This document shows, piece by piece, positions 3,713-54,030 of a DNA stretch of 54,030 bases (positions are counted from its first letter, which is position 1; each line of letters opens with the position of its first letter). A program made the translations under genes and the position numbers. The DNA is from Escherichia phage BSBP01: sequence record PQ231202.1; one strand, given 5' to 3'. The notes below the pieces were generated by a model. The model ran no database searches, had not been told where the DNA came from, and was given only the letters and a program-made list of their open reading frames with translations.

Positions 3713-3911
3713 TTTGCAACTCCTTAATTTTGGCAATTAAGTCGCGCATGATTTTAGGGCCAATAGCCAAGTCACCAGTCATATCATAAAGGTCACTGCC
3801 TATTGCTTTTGCATTATTCTCCCAACCCTCAATAAGTTCTAACAATTCTTCAATTGTGTAGCCCTTAAACTGAAAGTTTTCGTTATTAATTACGCCGTAT
3901 TTTTGAACCAT
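3702..3911 (-). CDS. Hypothetical protein
   Basis: 69-aa ORF. Confidence 0.45.
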   Translation of the reverse strand: MVQKYGVINNENFQFKGYTIEELLELIEGWENNAKAIGSDLYDMTGDLAIGPKIMRDLIAKIKELQNGS

Positions 3912-4460
3912 AGGAACTCTCCAATTTTCGATTCAGTGTTTGTGACTTCTCTTCTCATCTTTTGGCCCATGAAACAGGCCACAGAGTTGCGAAAATAGCC
4001 CTGTTTTAGGGCCATAGTCCAACCGTTTGTGTCAATTCTGGATAACTGCATTGGCGAAGGGTTACTCCCGTTAGGGTGCGGCCTACGCATCATATCTGCA
4101 TAGCAGCCTGGCAAGCTGCGGAGGCCACAGAGGCTTTGCAACCCTTCCCAATACATTCACCCAATCCACCTGCTTTGGCATAGCTGGTGGCGCGGTTTTG
4201 TGCGGATTATGCCACTCTAAGCCCTGTTTGTCCGACTTCCTCAGAGCACCAGCAGCTTGTGGCACAAACCTATTTTCGAATGACTAACATAAGCATGAGG
4301 CACAACCCTCTAATTATTCAGCCCTAACAGCTTGCTTATTTAGTTCCAATTCATCCCAATACATCGCCTATAACAAGTGAATAGCTTTTCTGCGAAGAAG
4401 TATTCCGGCCCTTTGGCCTATGTTAAAAAGATAAATGTATATGATGGAAACATTCCATCT

Positions 4461-4550
4461 TGAAGTTCCCTCGCGCAATCGGAAGGACTCGAACCTTTCA
4501 CTCCACCCTTGTGCACAGGGCTTCTACCCAGACGATATGGAAGGAACTTC
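4461..4550 (-). ncRNA. tRNA-like structured element (non-canonical; possibly degenerate tRNA)
   Basis: Minus strand carries a T-arm-like AAAGG-TTCGAGT-CCTTC, an anticodon-like hairpin GCCCT-GTGCACA-AGGGT and a closing stem GAAGTTC/GAACTTC, but spacing is not canonical. Confidence 0.2.
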
Positions 4551-4564
4551 AATGATGTTGTCTC

Positions 4565-4589
4565 TTCAATTCCAACTAATGTTTCAGAA
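4565..4589 (-). promoter_or_regulatory. Copy 2 of conserved promoter-like motif
   Basis: cttcaattccaactaatgtttcagaa. Confidence 0.3.
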
Positions 4590-4651
4590 TTATTCCAATA
4601 TTCCAAACAAAAAGAATAATAAGAATAAAATTAAATAAATGAAGAAAGTGC

Positions 4652-4681
4652 TTGACACCCATTTGGCGATAAGTGTATAAT
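4652..4681 (+). promoter_or_regulatory. Near-consensus sigma70-type promoter on the plus strand (TTGACA-N18-TGnTATAAT)
   Basis: TTGACA at 4652-4657 and TATAAT at 4676-4681 with TG at 4674-4675 and an AT-rich upstream tract; points opposite to all genes. Confidence 0.35.
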
Positions 4682-4706
4682 GCCTTTCTTCCCTAAGAGG
4701 TCAGAA

Positions 4707-4730
4707 TCAAATTCTACTAATGTTTCAGAA
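4707..4730 (-). promoter_or_regulatory. Copy 3 of conserved promoter-like motif (variant)
   Basis: tcaaattctactaatgtttcagaa. Confidence 0.25.
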
Positions 4731-4791
4731 TTAAGCCGAAGGCCAATGCGAGTACAAAACCCGCTTGGCACTTCGACGGAACAGCCTGGAA

Positions 4792-5028
4792 CTACACTGC
4801 CTTCCAATCTGAATCAAACAGTTCCTTCGGTCTTGTATAAATTATCGAATTAATTCCCAAGAAAGTATGATTTCCATACTTCTTAACTTCCTGGTAAGCA
4901 AACCCATCTACCCAATTGCCGCAGTGGGTTTTAATCTTTGTAGCAAACAGAATTCGATAGTAGTGACCACGAGGCTGGTGGAAGAGAATATCTTCTGGCT
5001 TGATTGAGTTGATATTTAAATCAGACAT
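4792..5028 (-). CDS. Hypothetical protein
   Basis: 78-aa ORF overlapping the next gene by a few nt. Confidence 0.45.
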   Translation of the reverse strand: MSDLNINSIKPEDILFHQPRGHYYRILFATKIKTHCGNWVDGFAYQEVKKYGNHTFLGINSIIYTRPKELFDSDWKAV

Positions 5029-5563
5029 TTAGGAATAATACTCCTTCAGAGAAGATATAGTCGCTGCCGAAGTCTTTCACAATTGCTTCCCAATCAATAT
5101 ATGGTGCAAGGCGGTCTGGAATATCCAGTGCTTCACTTTGCTTGAAGTAGTCTGCAATTGAATCGCAACGAGTAATGAACATGTCGTTCAAATCATTCAC
5201 AGTGAAAATATCAATATCACCACTGCGGAATGCTGCAAGAATTACATCCAAATCGGTGTCAACAAGCAGCTCATTGAACTTATCATACTTGCGAATGCTG
5301 AACAGGCCATTGGCAAAGCAAACTTCTGTTACATCTGCTTCACTTGATTCAAGTATGTCATAAGTCCCATCTTCTGGGTATTCGATGCCGTATTCTTCAT
5401 GCAAATAATCCCGCATGTCGAAATCATAGTGACGCCAAGACAGGCCATCAATCCACGCATCTACAAATTCAGAATTAGTTTCGCCTGTGTAGAAACGAAC
5501 CAATAAGGTTTCATCTCTACGCCAGGACTTAAGATTTTCTATTGCTTGGATAATGGTGCTCAT
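5021..5563 (-). CDS. Acidic protein, possible ArdA-like antirestriction (DNA mimic) protein
   Basis: 180 aa, highly Asp/Glu-rich; C-terminal segment resembles the ArdA C-terminus by eye. Confidence 0.4.
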
Positions 5564-8437: not shown

Positions 8438-8458
8438 TCTTCAAATCCAACTAATGTT
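8438..8458 (-). promoter_or_regulatory. Copy 4 of conserved promoter-like motif
   Basis: cttcaaatccaactaatgtt, about 75 nt upstream of the SSB-like gene. Confidence 0.3.
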
Positions 8459-8499
8459 AGATTAATCATGGACACCTACAAGAGATGCCCATTGTTAAT

Positions 8500-13361: not shown

Positions 13362-15302
13362 TTATTGACAGAAGTAGTAAGCGTGTTCGCTCATCAGAAG
13401 CTCTTCGGTTACGATGTTCTCATGATACATCTGAATGCCACCGAGTTGCTTAGACAGATTCTCGAATTGATTGTTGGTTACGAAGATTTCAACATATGCT
13501 GCACGAATAACTTCCATCATACGTGGAGCATCTGCCAAACAGCAACGGAAACAATCGTGGATTGAAGTGAAACCACGAAGACCAGCTTCTTTAGCTTTAA
13601 CAGCAACAGTACGAGCAACCAATGCGTCGATACCTTGAATATAGTTGACTACGAAAGTACGCTTGAATTCCTCTTTAGTAGGATTGGATTCACGAATGGT
13701 CCAAGGTTTCTCTTCCTGAATCTGGCCAAAGATAACACGAGTTTGAGAGTCAACACGAATGCTGAATGCATCACAGATTTCACGAGATGGGAAGCAAGGC
13801 TTCATTACAACCTGACCATCAGTGTGCTTATAGGTGATGTATTCCTTGTTAAGCTCAACACAACGTTGATATGCAGCATCAGCAGCTTTCTCAATGAACA
13901 TGTTAATCTTAGCACCCAATGCGTTATGGATTGCTTCCACACACAGTTCAGCAAATGCCTCAGCCTTCTCAACTGGAATCTGAAGAGATGCAGTCATGTA
14001 AGAGATAAAGTCAGAAGAACCAGTTAAAGCAGCTTTACCACCACCATACTGAATAGCCATGTATGGAGTTTTGATAAACTTACGACCAGCTTTCGGATTC
14101 AAGAACTCTTCCATGATTTCAACAGAAGGTTTCATTGAAGACTTATCCAGCAGCTTCAACAGTTCACGAAGACTCAACTGGTATGGGTCAGATGCTTTAG
14201 TCTCAGAATCAACCAGACCTGTTGCACGAGCCATTTCCATGTTACCAGCAATGAATGCCAGATACTGAGTACCAGAACATTTAGCATCTAAGCCAAAGCC
14301 TACACGAGAATCGCATTCACCTGTAGTCTCAAACTTGAACCAATCCAGAGCCAGACGAACATAAGTGAATGGCTTAGAAGGACGTTCAGCTTTAGGCATG
14401 TTCATCATGCGAGCAAGTGAACCAGCTGGATTCTGAGCAACATAAGTTAAACGTTTAGCAGAGCACCAGTCTCCACCAGAAATGTCTTCCAGCTCAGCCA
14501 TGAACATGTTGTATGCAATGGTAGTAGAACCATCTTCGTTAAACTTCTTAACGATGTTCTCAACATTGTGAGAATACAAGCAACGAGCAAAGTCAGAGGA
14601 TTGTGGGTTAGGACCAGCACATGCTACATGATACAGGCGACCACGGTTATCAGCAAAGTAGTCAGAATAGAGTGTATCCTGAGTCATCATTGCTACAGCA
14701 TTGTTCCAAACATGGAGTTCAGTCTGGATTGCTTCTGGCATCTGCAAGCCACCATAAGTACGTTGTTCAAGCATGGACTGGATGATGCGAACCATCTCAG
14801 TCTCCACATGGTACTCAGTATCTTGCAGGAATTCGATTGCAGCTTTCAGAGTTTTGGATGGCTTAACTTTGCCACCTTTAACGAAAGGCTTGCGACGAGA
14901 TTCAGATGTAACACGCTCAGTGAATGGCACTGCTGTGTCTTTGGTTGTAACCAGTTCAACCCATGTGTCAGTTTGTTGGAATGACTTGTCTTCGTTCATG
15001 GTGATGAAGCCGAAGTGCTTAGCCAGACCAATGAGGTTGATAGCTGGGTCAACATAGTGCATTGCTTTCAAATCGTTGTTGTAGCGATTGGCATCAGCAA
15101 TAGAAGCAGAAGCCAGCTCAACCATCGCAATGGCAGGAACAACATCATCACGTGTGAAAGACGTCATCATCTTGAATATGGCTAAGGCAGCAATAGCACA
15201 AGTCTGAGGCTGCATATAGTTCTGCTTCTCTTTGGCACGGTATACCAGAGCAGTGATAGCAGGAACAACAGATTTGATAGTTTGAGTGGTGATAGTAGTC
15301 AT
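13362..15302 (-). CDS. Single-subunit T7-like DNA-dependent RNA polymerase, N-terminally minimal (646 aa)
   Basis: Motif A LDAKCSGTQY, motif B RKFIKTPYMAIQYGGG, motif C TSIHDCF and a VNYIQGID segment align to T7 RNAP catalytic motifs. Confidence 0.8.
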   Translation of the reverse strand: MTTITTQTIKSVVPAITALVYRAKEKQNYMQPQTCAIAALAIFKMMTSFTRDDVVPAIAMVELASASIADANRYNNDLKAMHYVDPAINLIGLAKHFGFITMNEDKSFQQTDTWVELVTTKDTAVPFTERVTSESRRKPFVKGGKVKPSKTLKAAIEFLQDTEYHVETEMVRIIQSMLEQRTYGGLQMPEAIQTELHVWNNAVAMMTQDTLYSDYFADNRGRLYHVACAGPNPQSSDFARCLYSHNVENIVKKFNEDGSTTIAYNMFMAELEDISGGDWCSAKRLTYVAQNPAGSLARMMNMPKAERPSKPFTYVRLALDWFKFETTGECDSRVGFGLDAKCSGTQYLAFIAGNMEMARATGLVDSETKASDPYQLSLRELLKLLDKSSMKPSVEIMEEFLNPKAGRKFIKTPYMAIQYGGGKAALTGSSDFISYMTASLQIPVEKAEAFAELCVEAIHNALGAKINMFIEKAADAAYQRCVELNKEYITYKHTDGQVVMKPCFPSREICDAFSIRVDSQTRVIFGQIQEEKPWTIRESNPTKEEFKRTFVVNYIQGIDALVARTVAVKAKEAGLRGFTSIHDCFRCCLADAPRMMEVIRAAYVEIFVTNNQFENLSKQLGGIQMYHENIVTEELLMSEHAYYFCQ

Positions 15303-15550: not shown

Positions 15551-15815
15551 CCAAAAATAAAATTATAATATTGCCACAATTCTAGTCTCGTTAATATCGT
15601 AACAATTCGAGTATCGTAGCTTTGTTACGAATTCTAGTCTCATTAATTCTGTAGCAATATTGAAAATAAAAAAAAAATTATAAAAAAAATTATTTAATAG
15701 TCGGTTTTCCATTCGAACAAATTTCGGCGAGATACAGTTGACCGACCATGTACCATTTGGTTTTAACTTTACGCATTCCTAATATTACTCTTAATATTGT
15801 AGCAATATTGGGAAT
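15551..15815. repeat. AT-rich non-coding region with direct and inverted repeats and poly-A runs
   Basis: aattctagtctc at 15578 and 15630; inverted repeat cgtaacaa/ttgttacg at 15598-15629; TGTAGCAATATT copies also seen in the 12.3-13.3 kb region. Confidence 0.45.
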
Positions 15816-15925
15816 AAATAAATATTTAATTTACTTGTCTTATTCTAGCTCAAAGAGAAACGACGCTAACGCATCGAATCTCTTCTCGCATATAACTGAC
15901 AAACGTCAGCCTTCACCGTATCCAA

Positions 15926-47214: not shown

Positions 47215-47460
47215 TTACAGTTGAGTGATAACTAGGGAGAAGTCCAGGTCGTTCATACAAGAGATTAACTCTTGCTCATTGACGACAGGACCAGATAAAG
47301 TTTTAATGAATGCCTGATACATTGAATTGGCAGCATAATCACTTCCAAATAATGTTCCAGCATTCTCGGTAATTACAGACAGCACAGCTTCCCGTGCGTC
47401 TTCACCTTTCTTGACAAAATGGAAATGGTCCACTTTGTCGAATATAGATACAACAACCAT
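47215..47460 (-). CDS. Hypothetical protein
   Basis: 81-aa ORF. Confidence 0.45.
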   Translation of the reverse strand: MVVVSIFDKVDHFHFVKKGEDAREAVLSVITENAGTLFGSDYAANSMYQAFIKTLSGPVVNEQELISCMNDLDFSLVITQL

Positions 47461-53903: not shown

Positions 53904-54030
53904 TCGGGATGAGGAGTAACCCAAATAAAAGCCTGAACTTTCTTTCTGCACAACACAATCAGCGCAACTAAGCCGTATCGCTACGGTATGCCAGACGCTC
54001 TCTTGAGCCTTTTGAACAGAGGCATAACTG
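53904..54030. repeat. Second copy of the 127-bp terminal repeat
   Basis: Identical to 1-127. Confidence 0.9.

Follow-up and report, generated by a model that had tools for sequence, protein, structure and literature searches.

The window analysed here, i.e. the whole stretch of 54,030 nt from Escherichia phage BSBP01 (PQ231202.1), has identical first and last 127 nt and therefore corresponds to a circularised assembly of ~53.9 kb. By megablast, the phage was placed in the genus Carltongylesvirus (Chaseviridae, Cleopatravirinae), with the phiEcoM-GJ1/ST32-like phages. Over the 1.7 kb surrounding the promoter described below, megablast identities of 83–91% were obtained with Shigella phage 2KOFFS, Mangalitsa, ST32, SA91KD, Bp7, SKA49, MLP1 and several Yersinia phages, and phiEcoM-GJ1 was also recovered as a relative in a later search. 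All the ORFs with homologues are located on the minus strand in BSBP01, as in every annotated relative. The ORF at 13362–15302 codes for a T7-like single-subunit RNA polymerase (Pfam RNA_pol, E = 1e-18). In the phiEcoM-GJ1 record, the RNA polymerase gene comes first, preceded by the only annotated host promoter and followed by nine 'putative phage promoters', all of them on the gene strand. As for replication, the annotation of the relatives includes T7-like genes, namely a primase/helicase and a DNA polymerase.

The locus under study lies in an ORF-poor region, which the initial annotation had delimited at 4265–4790; the region is real and extends further than was proposed, from ~3912 to 4791. 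In the relatives, the same region consists of 860–1000 nt that are either unannotated or filled with tiny ORFs differing between records. Read along the minus strand, the ArdA-like gene (5563..5021) and a 78-aa gene (5028..4792) are followed by a hairpin (4774..4728), a first phage promoter copy, P1 (4733..4717), the sigma-70 promoter on the other strand (4681..4652), an A+T tract with repeats at 4590–4628, a second phage promoter copy, P2 (4592..4576), a tRNA-like hairpin region and ~540 nt of very conserved non-coding DNA, the next gene being found at 3911. The 'ArdA-like' label is itself weak, the Pfam ArdA profile giving E = 0.0078 and 17.3 bits, under the cut-off of 27. Concerning a possible host origin of the locus sequence, no match was found by sensitive blastn in 5,426 complete E. 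coli genomes. The features of the locus are the following:

4576–4592, minus strand: phage promoter copy P2, TAATTCTGAAACATTAG as read on this strand, divergent from the sigma-70 promoter
4593–4651, no strand: A+T-rich tract (80% A+T) between the divergent sigma-70 promoter (plus strand) and P2 (minus strand)
4641–4691, no strand: inverted repeat, GAAGAAAGTGC (4641–4651) and GCCTTTCTTC (4682–4691), which brackets the core promoter
4652–4657, plus strand: −35 hexamer TTGACA (6/6), invariant in all the Cleopatravirinae relatives examined
4658–4675, plus strand: spacer CCCATTTGGCGATAAGTG of 18 bp, in which TTT (4662–4664) and TG (4674–4675) are invariant across genera
4676–4681, plus strand: −10 hexamer TATAAT (6/6), followed by a conserved G (GC in BSBP01 and most relatives)
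4687–4690, plus strand: predicted transcription start, from the usual distance of 6–8 nt after the −10 hexamer
4717–4733, minus strand: phage promoter copy P1, convergent with the sigma-70 promoter
4728–4774, minus strand: terminator-like hairpin closing the early gene block, a rho-independent terminator being annotated at the homologous place in SA91KD
4792–5563, minus strand: 78-aa ORF (4792–5028) and ArdA-like ORF (5021–5563), to the mRNA of which the plus-strand transcript would be antisense

The two hexamers and their spacing form an exact 12/12 match to the sigma-70 consensus, so that the plus-strand promoter, opposite to all genes, which the initial annotation had described as near-consensus, is a closer match than was stated. 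No other site with at least 11 of the 12 positions was found for spacers of 16–19 bp, on either strand of the 54-kb window. The number of exact matches expected by chance, estimated analytically from the base and dinucleotide composition, is 0.013–0.016 for N18 and ~0.05–0.06 for N16–19 (both strands, 53.9 kb), whereas shuffled sequences gave an expectation of 0.51 within one mismatch at N18. The 18-bp spacer of BSBP01 falls within the range of 17 ± 1 bp. The dinucleotide TG at 4674–4675 directly abuts TATAAT (TGTATAAT; context GTGTATAAT), one position too close to the −10 hexamer, and the TGnTATAAT extended −10 element formerly read at this place is consequently absent (the scanning tool also returned TG_before_second = no); such an element is optional for sigma-70 promoters. 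As to the candidate start bases (4687–4690), all are pyrimidines. The AT-rich tract reported upstream of the promoter was recovered, with the A+T content and limits listed above.

Within Carltongylesvirus, identical hexamers at N18 were found in eight of the nine loci, and in the ninth, that of Yersinia phage PYps23T, they are separated by N17 through a 1-nt deletion in the spacer. Position and orientation of the promoter are the same in every locus of the genus that was read. However, the whole block 4570–4780 is 92–97% identical within the genus, above the flanking genes, and conservation at this level is thus not specific to the promoter; only the comparison across genera discriminates.

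At this wider level, TTGACA-N18-TATAAT was found with unchanged position and orientation in Sabourvirus 4HA13, Faunusvirus Faunus, Aeromonas phage phiA050 and Suwonvirus PM1. In 4HA13, Faunus and phiA050, the shared place is on the non-coding strand, between the ArdA-like/small-ORF pair and P2; the blastn match of these three phages to the window covers only ~60 nt around P2, and their ArdA-like proteins share 32–37% identity with that of BSBP01. Over the five genera, including that of BSBP01, the hexamers are 100% identical vs. 52% for the spacer, 43% for the 30 nt upstream and 42% for the 30 nt downstream. Beyond the hexamers, the invariant positions are the TTT of the spacer, the TG before the −10 and the G right after it. 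Within the 22 kb read for PM1 and the 13.7 kb read for Faunus, no second 12/12 match occurs. Metagenomic relatives were fetched via a neighbouring 19-nt anchor, and not via the promoter itself; most of the anchor matches (IMG/VR, metagenomes) were unrelated sequences of low G+C content, relatives being limited to L044, L119, L120 and L121. All three metagenomic relatives with sufficient flank carry the 12/12 promoter, one of them at N17. Altogether, the spacer is 17 bp long in PYps23T and L120 and 18 bp long in the other genera, a length of 17 or 18 bp being retained despite substitutions and a 1-nt deletion.

These counts bear on the reading by which the motif would be a chance match without function, or else the promoter of an unrecognised small plus-strand protein. 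One exact match per genome has a ~5% chance, and a 35-aa plus-strand ORF does start at 4747; the identity of the hexamers in five genera with diverged surroundings is, however, more than a chance match can explain, and the plus-strand ORFs are short and not conserved, the 35-aa frame shifting among close relatives and being absent in the other genera. A coding gene on this strand was therefore rejected, and this reading as a whole is considered extremely improbable. The motif is most probably (at roughly 85–90%) a true promoter used by the host sigma-70 RNA polymerase and maintained by selection, and, as judged by the alignments, it is under strong purifying selection in most Cleopatravirinae. 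Its firing in vivo, its start position and the role of its transcript are what we infer from the sequence. Exceptions to its conservation were also found. In Erwinia phage Y2 (Loessnervirus), TTGACA and TGTATAAT are kept merely 8 bp apart, and the A+T tract and P2 are lost, which indicates that the promoter function is dispensable in at least one lineage. In the subfamily Nefertitivirinae, no comparable motif was detected in the 50 kb searched for each of pAh6-C and Spp001.

Regarding the neighbouring elements, the two promoter-like motif copies mentioned in the initial annotation could be located as P2 and P1. The phage promoter motif has five copies in the genome, all intergenic and in one shared orientation. 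The phiEcoM-GJ1 annotation lists P2 under the name 'putative phage promoter 5', and a promoter is also annotated for it in SA91KD. P2 is conserved across genera. In four genera, it is found directly behind the A+T tract, and in PM1 a P2-like copy occurs no closer than ~330 nt away. P1, on the other hand, is reduced to its 3' core, CATTAGT.G.A, outside Carltongylesvirus. At the terminator position, short G+C-rich hairpins were found in the other genera. The hairpin, the convergent sigma-70 promoter and the A+T tract are kept in all five genera, even where the full P1 is missing, and this layout is easier to reconcile with a function at the boundary than with one that depends on P1.

Two other candidates were rejected at this locus. 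Coding through the promoter on the minus strand, which would involve a 58-aa ORF with a TTG start (4631–4807) and the small ORFs annotated in relatives, is contradicted by 1-nt indels in the relatives. As for a tRNA or tmRNA, none was found by ARAGORN in the window, nor at the locus in nine relatives.

The conserved feature could also be a hairpin in the minus-strand RNA, serving as a processing site or an attenuator in transcripts from P1 or from the early operon, the likeness to a promoter then being incidental. The minus-strand RNA of the inverted repeat indeed folds into a long hairpin that spans exactly 4641–4691 and is followed by a U-rich run, and dyads recur within the spacer of relatives. 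These spacer dyads are perfect over 6–7 bp, with differing sequences, in 4HA13, Faunus/L044, phiA050 and PYps23T (P ~0.01–0.03 each vs. shuffled spacers), and four of the five within-genus substitutions in the dyad arms create a Watson-Crick pair at a formerly mismatched position. A hairpin, however, constrains pairing and not sequence, and what is observed is the reverse: arms and loop vary freely from genus to genus, while the twelve hexamer positions and the spacing of 17–18 bp are invariant. Furthermore, the inverted repeat is not conserved beyond the genus, outer stem and U-run both being lost, and the z-score of the fold is a modest −1.9. Such a hairpin is consequently regarded as a very unlikely explanation. 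In BSBP01 itself, the spacer contains the imperfect dyad CACCCAT / ATAAGTG, which is not significant; the dyad is likewise weak and not significant in PM1, and its register shifts from one genus to another, so that an operator with a fixed register in the spacer was discarded.

If the promoter is active, the geometry of the locus predicts that a transcript starting near 4688 reads into the hairpin 4728–4774 and then runs opposite the ORFs at 4792–5563. No intrinsic terminator was found on the plus strand between 3000 and 7000, and the hairpin 4734–4774 has no U-run on this strand. RNAalifold returned 0 pairs for a consensus RNA structure across the five genera; no Rfam match was obtained at the gathering threshold over the whole window, nor at E ≤ 5 over 3800–4850. 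The single-sequence fold of the plus strand has a z-score of −2.3, a value that is attributed to the bidirectional terminator hairpin. Downstream of the promoter, the plus strand carries slightly more C than G, with a ratio of 1.2–1.3; this is compatible with termination by Rho and is no evidence for it.

The product, if made, would thus be an unstructured antisense RNA of undefined length, predicted to extend over the leader of P1 and the terminator and into the 3' portion of the early genes. With neither conserved ORF nor fold, Rfam match or terminator, it would have to work by base complementarity or by the process of transcription itself. Of the antisense or small non-coding RNA that had been proposed for this position, the antisense and non-coding geometry is retained, whereas a discrete small RNA finds no terminator, fold or Rfam match at the locus.

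Among the possible uses of the promoter, a role in cis at the boundary between early and middle genes is tentatively favoured, at somewhat below even odds for the statement as a whole, host-polymerase promoter and antisense transcript included. It is preferred because the part of the locus that is conserved in five genera consists of exactly the terminator hairpin, the convergent host promoter and the A+T tract. The host sigma-70 RNA polymerase would start a non-coding plus-strand transcript near 4688, and this transcript would run head-on into P1 and into the hairpin that ends the early block, and then antisense to the 78-aa and ArdA-like genes. Having no terminator of its own, it would probably be ended by Rho or by polymerase collision. 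Either the host polymerases fired from the promoter would collide with those leaving the early operon, or the plus-strand RNA would base-pair with the early mRNA at its 3' end; both options would result in a sharper termination or turnover of the early transcripts. The downstream genes would then rely on the phage polymerase starting at P2, just behind the sigma-70 promoter. The pyrimidine start bases count against this reading, and an 18-bp spacer between perfect hexamers may make for tight binding of the polymerase rather than for its productive escape.

Known phage systems offer partial parallels to this boundary role. In lambda, p_o gives rise to the oop RNA, a discrete cis-antisense RNA of 77 nt that is directed against the cII mRNA at its 3' end, is encoded close to ori and has its own intrinsic terminator. 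The BSBP01 promoter resembles p_o in being a host sigma-70 promoter of the constitutive type, placed opposite a phage operon and reading back into its 3' end, near an A+T-rich, origin-like region and with a (here predicted) non-coding product. Unlike the oop locus, it lacks a plus-strand terminator and a conserved fold, and BSBP01, a virulent phage that encodes an RNA polymerase, differs from lambda in these respects and shares no sequence similarity with it. In T7, one promoter annotated in the record (NC_001604), 'E. coli promoter A0 (leftward)', points against the rightward reading of the rest of the genome; it is again a host promoter opposed to the universal gene direction in a phage with a single-subunit RNA polymerase. 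A0 nevertheless precedes the early promoters, at position 224 and thus at the very left end of the genome, whereas the BSBP01 promoter is found ~10 kb inwards, where the early block ends, between phage promoters, and has an exact consensus over several genera. No established function is known for A0.

In the T7-like phage LUZ100, non-coding antisense RNAs were seen by ONT-cappable-seq, LUZ7 and LIT1 also being cited in this respect (PMC10134795). The common point is antisense non-coding transcription, predicted here, in an otherwise unidirectional genome, for which a regulatory role was proposed (PMC10134795). The antisense RNAs of LUZ100 belong to the structural region and were found as transcripts, while the BSBP01 promoter is situated at the early/middle boundary and was found at the sequence level.

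The suitability of the promoter for tight binding also points to another reading, namely that it is a binding site at which the host polymerase would act as a roadblock or 'sitting duck', gating P1 or the read-through from the early operon, or would tune P2 through supercoiling; this site may in addition be controlled by a DNA-binding protein specific for the spacer dyad or for the TATTCC repeats of the A+T tract. Perfect hexamers, pyrimidine start bases and the 18-bp spacer all suit strong binding. The predicted starts of P1 (near 4717) and of the sigma-70 promoter (near 4688) are ~29 bp apart, and the predicted polymerase footprints nearly abut. The perfect spacer dyads of the relatives and their pairing substitutions are also in its favour, as opposed to the weakness of the dyad in BSBP01 and PM1 and to its shifting register. 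Moreover, since P2 lies beyond the sigma-70 site, a polymerase block would not stop the transcription of the middle genes, and this reading is judged distinctly unlikely. Face-to-face promoters are known from coliphages 186 (pR/pL) and P2 (Pe/Pc), where transcriptional interference between two host-polymerase promoters serves the choice between lysis and lysogeny. The 5' overlap of the transcripts, of a few tens of bases, is comparable to that predicted at the BSBP01 locus, with the difference that one BSBP01 partner is a phage-polymerase promoter, complete only in Carltongylesvirus.

The A+T tract calls for a further alternative. The 60-nt window from 4588 is the second most A+T-rich of the genome, and the tract carries TTATTCC / TATTCC (4590–4604) and two GAATAA (4614–4628) in an inverted arrangement, i.e. 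the densest TATTCC/GAATAA cluster of the genome, with four copies in both orientations. By reading, more copies were seen in 4HA13, Faunus and phiA050, and nearly none in PM1. Compared by eye with the UP consensus, the tract matches partially (~6/9 in the proximal subsite). It may be a UP-like element, a protein-binding array or an unwinding element.

An element of a replication origin, in which the leftward sigma-70 promoter and the rightward P2 would unwind the A+T tract or prime DNA synthesis, is on these grounds the main rival to the boundary role, possible though on the unlikely side. It is in agreement with the two tandem phage promoter copies of Carltongylesvirus, 141 bp apart and separated by the 59-bp tract, with the iteron-like repeats, with the T7-like primase/helicase and DNA polymerase annotated in the relatives and with the non-coding DNA around the locus, which is more conserved than the flanking genes. 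The primary origin of T7 consists of the tandem phage promoters phi1.1A and phi1.1B and an A+T-rich region, and lambda ori is subject to transcriptional activation. In the T7 record, phi1.1A and phi1.1B are 75 bp apart. The BSBP01 locus thus shares with the T7 origin tandem phage-polymerase promoters, an A+T-rich stretch and a T7-like replication module; it differs by the host promoter inside it, none being known within the T7 origin, by a second phage promoter that is genus-specific and by not adjoining the RNA polymerase gene, which is ~8.6 kb away. The full P1 being genus-specific, the tandem layout is not general; PM1 combines a distant P2-like copy with nearly absent repeats, and Y2 has lost the promoter spacing, the tract and P2 altogether. 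In addition, the tract lies upstream, and not downstream, of the sigma-70 promoter. The cumulative GC skew is monotonic and therefore uninformative.

Elements of these readings could be combined in a composite control point, in which the host polymerase would be recruited to its strongest site in the genome, divergent with a phage promoter over an iteron-bearing tract; this proposal is regarded as doubtful. If it were true, the locus could be a bidirectional origin, with the host polymerase moving leftward and the phage polymerase rightward, or alternatively an insulator made of a terminator and a convergent promoter, by which the later genes would be strictly dependent on the phage polymerase. 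In either use, it is conceivable that binding of a protein to the spacer dyad or to the TATTCC repeats switches the locus off. An origin element or an insulator at this place would also illustrate how the host enzyme can be put to uses beyond early gene expression by a phage that encodes a polymerase itself.

Concerning the existing annotations, the sigma-70 promoter is not annotated in the records of phiEcoM-GJ1, SA91KD, Mangalitsa, 2KOFFS, Bp7, PYps23T, ST32, SKA49, MLP1, EcoM1, 4HA13, Faunus, phiA050 and PM1, and no mention of it was found in the ST32, 4HA13, Tiny and ICTV papers. In the ICTV profile, the phage promoters of chaseviruses are described as not identified so far (PMC12842549). 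A literature search for Chaseviridae transcript data returned none. The site would represent a new, unannotated antisense host-polymerase promoter in this phage, a small regulatory RNA from it being at most putative. The transcription programme of the Chaseviridae is essentially unmapped according to the same profile (PMC12842549), and the promoter adds a defined element to it that is open to experiment. No better host-polymerase site is present in the genome; the promoter lies on the non-coding strand and is exact in at least five genera in which the neighbouring proteins share about one-third amino acid identity. It also marks the boundary between a gene block ended by a terminator and the first widely conserved phage promoter. 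In practical terms, an antisense promoter with an exact consensus merits annotation in these genomes; several such phages are considered for therapy or biocontrol, and others are sources of orthogonal polymerase/promoter pairs.

A phage-polymerase promoter on the plus strand after the −10 hexamer was also considered and rejected. CTTAGTTGG-like cores were found at this place in phiA050, Y2, 4HA13 and Faunus and are absent in BSBP01, and the upstream specificity half of these cores mismatches the phages' own promoters.

Besides the antisense sigma-70 promoter (TTGACA 4652-4657, TATAAT 4676-4681, plus strand), the following features were recorded in the window or at the corresponding loci of related phages:

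3910-4450: non-coding block of about 540 nt, highly conserved within the genus
4455-4562, minus strand: tRNA-like element with a stable fold, a 13-bp closing stem and the T-loop-like motif GGTTCGAGTCC
4590-4628, both orientations: TTATTCC/TATTCC and GAATAA repeats between P2 (a putative phage-polymerase promoter copy) and the sigma-70 promoter
4658-4675: dyad symmetry in the promoter spacer, also in the homologous spacers of L005, L016, L017, L018, L044 and L120
5021-5563, minus strand: 'ArdA-like' gene with a weak Pfam ArdA match
2383-2409, 4566-4592, 4707-4733, 8441-8467 and 47339-47365, minus strand: five copies of a putative phage-polymerase promoter family
15560-15830, minus strand: A+T-rich region upstream of the RNA polymerase gene
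8-25 nt past the -10 hexamer, plus strand, in 4HA13, Faunus and phiA050 (together L016, L017 and L018) and in Y2 (L028): CTTAGTTGG / CTTTAATTG(G/A)
About 12.0 kb in Erwinia phage Y2 (L028, NC_019504), complementary strand: hexamer pair TTGACA and TGTATAAT, 8 bp apart

At the Y2 locus (TTGACACAAAACTGTATAAT), the short interval between the two hexamers looks like a 10-bp deletion, which would be expected to abolish promoter activity; this phage has also lost both the A+T tract and P2. As for the spacer dyad, its arms differ from phage to phage (ACAGAAT/ATTCTGT, ACAGAT/ATCTGT, ACACAT/ATGTGT, ACCAAT/ATTGGT and ACCCA/TGGGT), and the symmetry reaches significance on its own in each of four lineages but is weak in the window's phage and in the Suwonvirus PM1. 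Concerning the repeats, four copies of TTATTCC/TATTCC/GAATAA are present in the window, and visibly more TATTCC/GAATAA copies were seen upstream of the promoters of 4HA13, Faunus and phiA050 when the sequences were read by eye. The total length of the repeat region varies among phages, and the repeats themselves resemble iterons or the binding sites of a protein.

The five copies of the putative phage-polymerase promoter, with the minus-strand motif ..TTCTGAAACATTAGTTGGA..TGA, are all intergenic and all co-oriented with the genes. The ICTV profile describes the promoters of chaseviruses as still unidentified (PMC12842549), whereas the GenBank records of phiEcoM-GJ1 and SA91KD do annotate phage-polymerase promoters. 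The CTTAGTTGG / CTTTAATTG(G/A) motif of the initial transcribed region is similar to the phage promoter's 3' core read in plus orientation, and it is the inverted complement of the nearby core of P1 (the copy at 4717-4733 in the window); the window itself lacks the motif. Nowhere in the genome is the A+T content higher than in the region preceding the RNA polymerase gene, where it reaches 90% over 60 nt at 15642; this region contains the repeated motifs CAATATTGCTACA and (C)GAGACTAGAATT(G/C). In phiEcoM-GJ1, the host promoter annotated upstream of this gene reads TTGACG...GATATT, to which the antisense sigma-70 promoter compares as much nearer to consensus.

Within the genus, identity across the non-coding block is mostly 0.9-0.99, falling to 0.57 at 4090-4119; the flanking genes are less conserved (0.5-0.88). 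The block holds a core, at about 4282-4341 (CTCTAATTATTCAGCCCTAACAGCTTGCTTATTTAG), that recurs in 4HA13, Faunus, Y2 and phiA050. In phiEcoM-GJ1 a doubtful 'SbcC' ORF is annotated at the place of the block. The block may encode a non-coding RNA that has escaped recognition, or it may act in cis. The adjacent tRNA-like element is predicted to fold very stably (-42.5 kcal/mol, z = -4.0), and neither ARAGORN nor the Rfam tRNA model (E<=5) called it. It is the sole hypervariable cassette (57-77% identity) in non-coding sequence otherwise conserved at 92-99%, and its sequence exists in at least three unrelated versions.

The Pfam ArdA match of the 'ArdA-like' product is below the cut-off (E = 0.0078; 17.3 bits vs. 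27), and in several relatives the homologue goes under the name 'tail fiber protein' or 'replication inhibitor protein'; the records thus disagree on what this gene is. The window begins and ends with an identical 127-nt sequence (1-127 and 53904-54030), as is typical of the overlap that an assembler leaves on circularisation; the actual genome has been described as a linear molecule with ~3-kb terminal repeats (PMC12842549). Finally, PP952070.1, 'Staphylococcus phage Pel53' (host Staphylococcus hyicus), shares ~85% identity with the enterobacterial phage group across the locus and 94% over the 241-nt promoter region; this host label looks doubtful.
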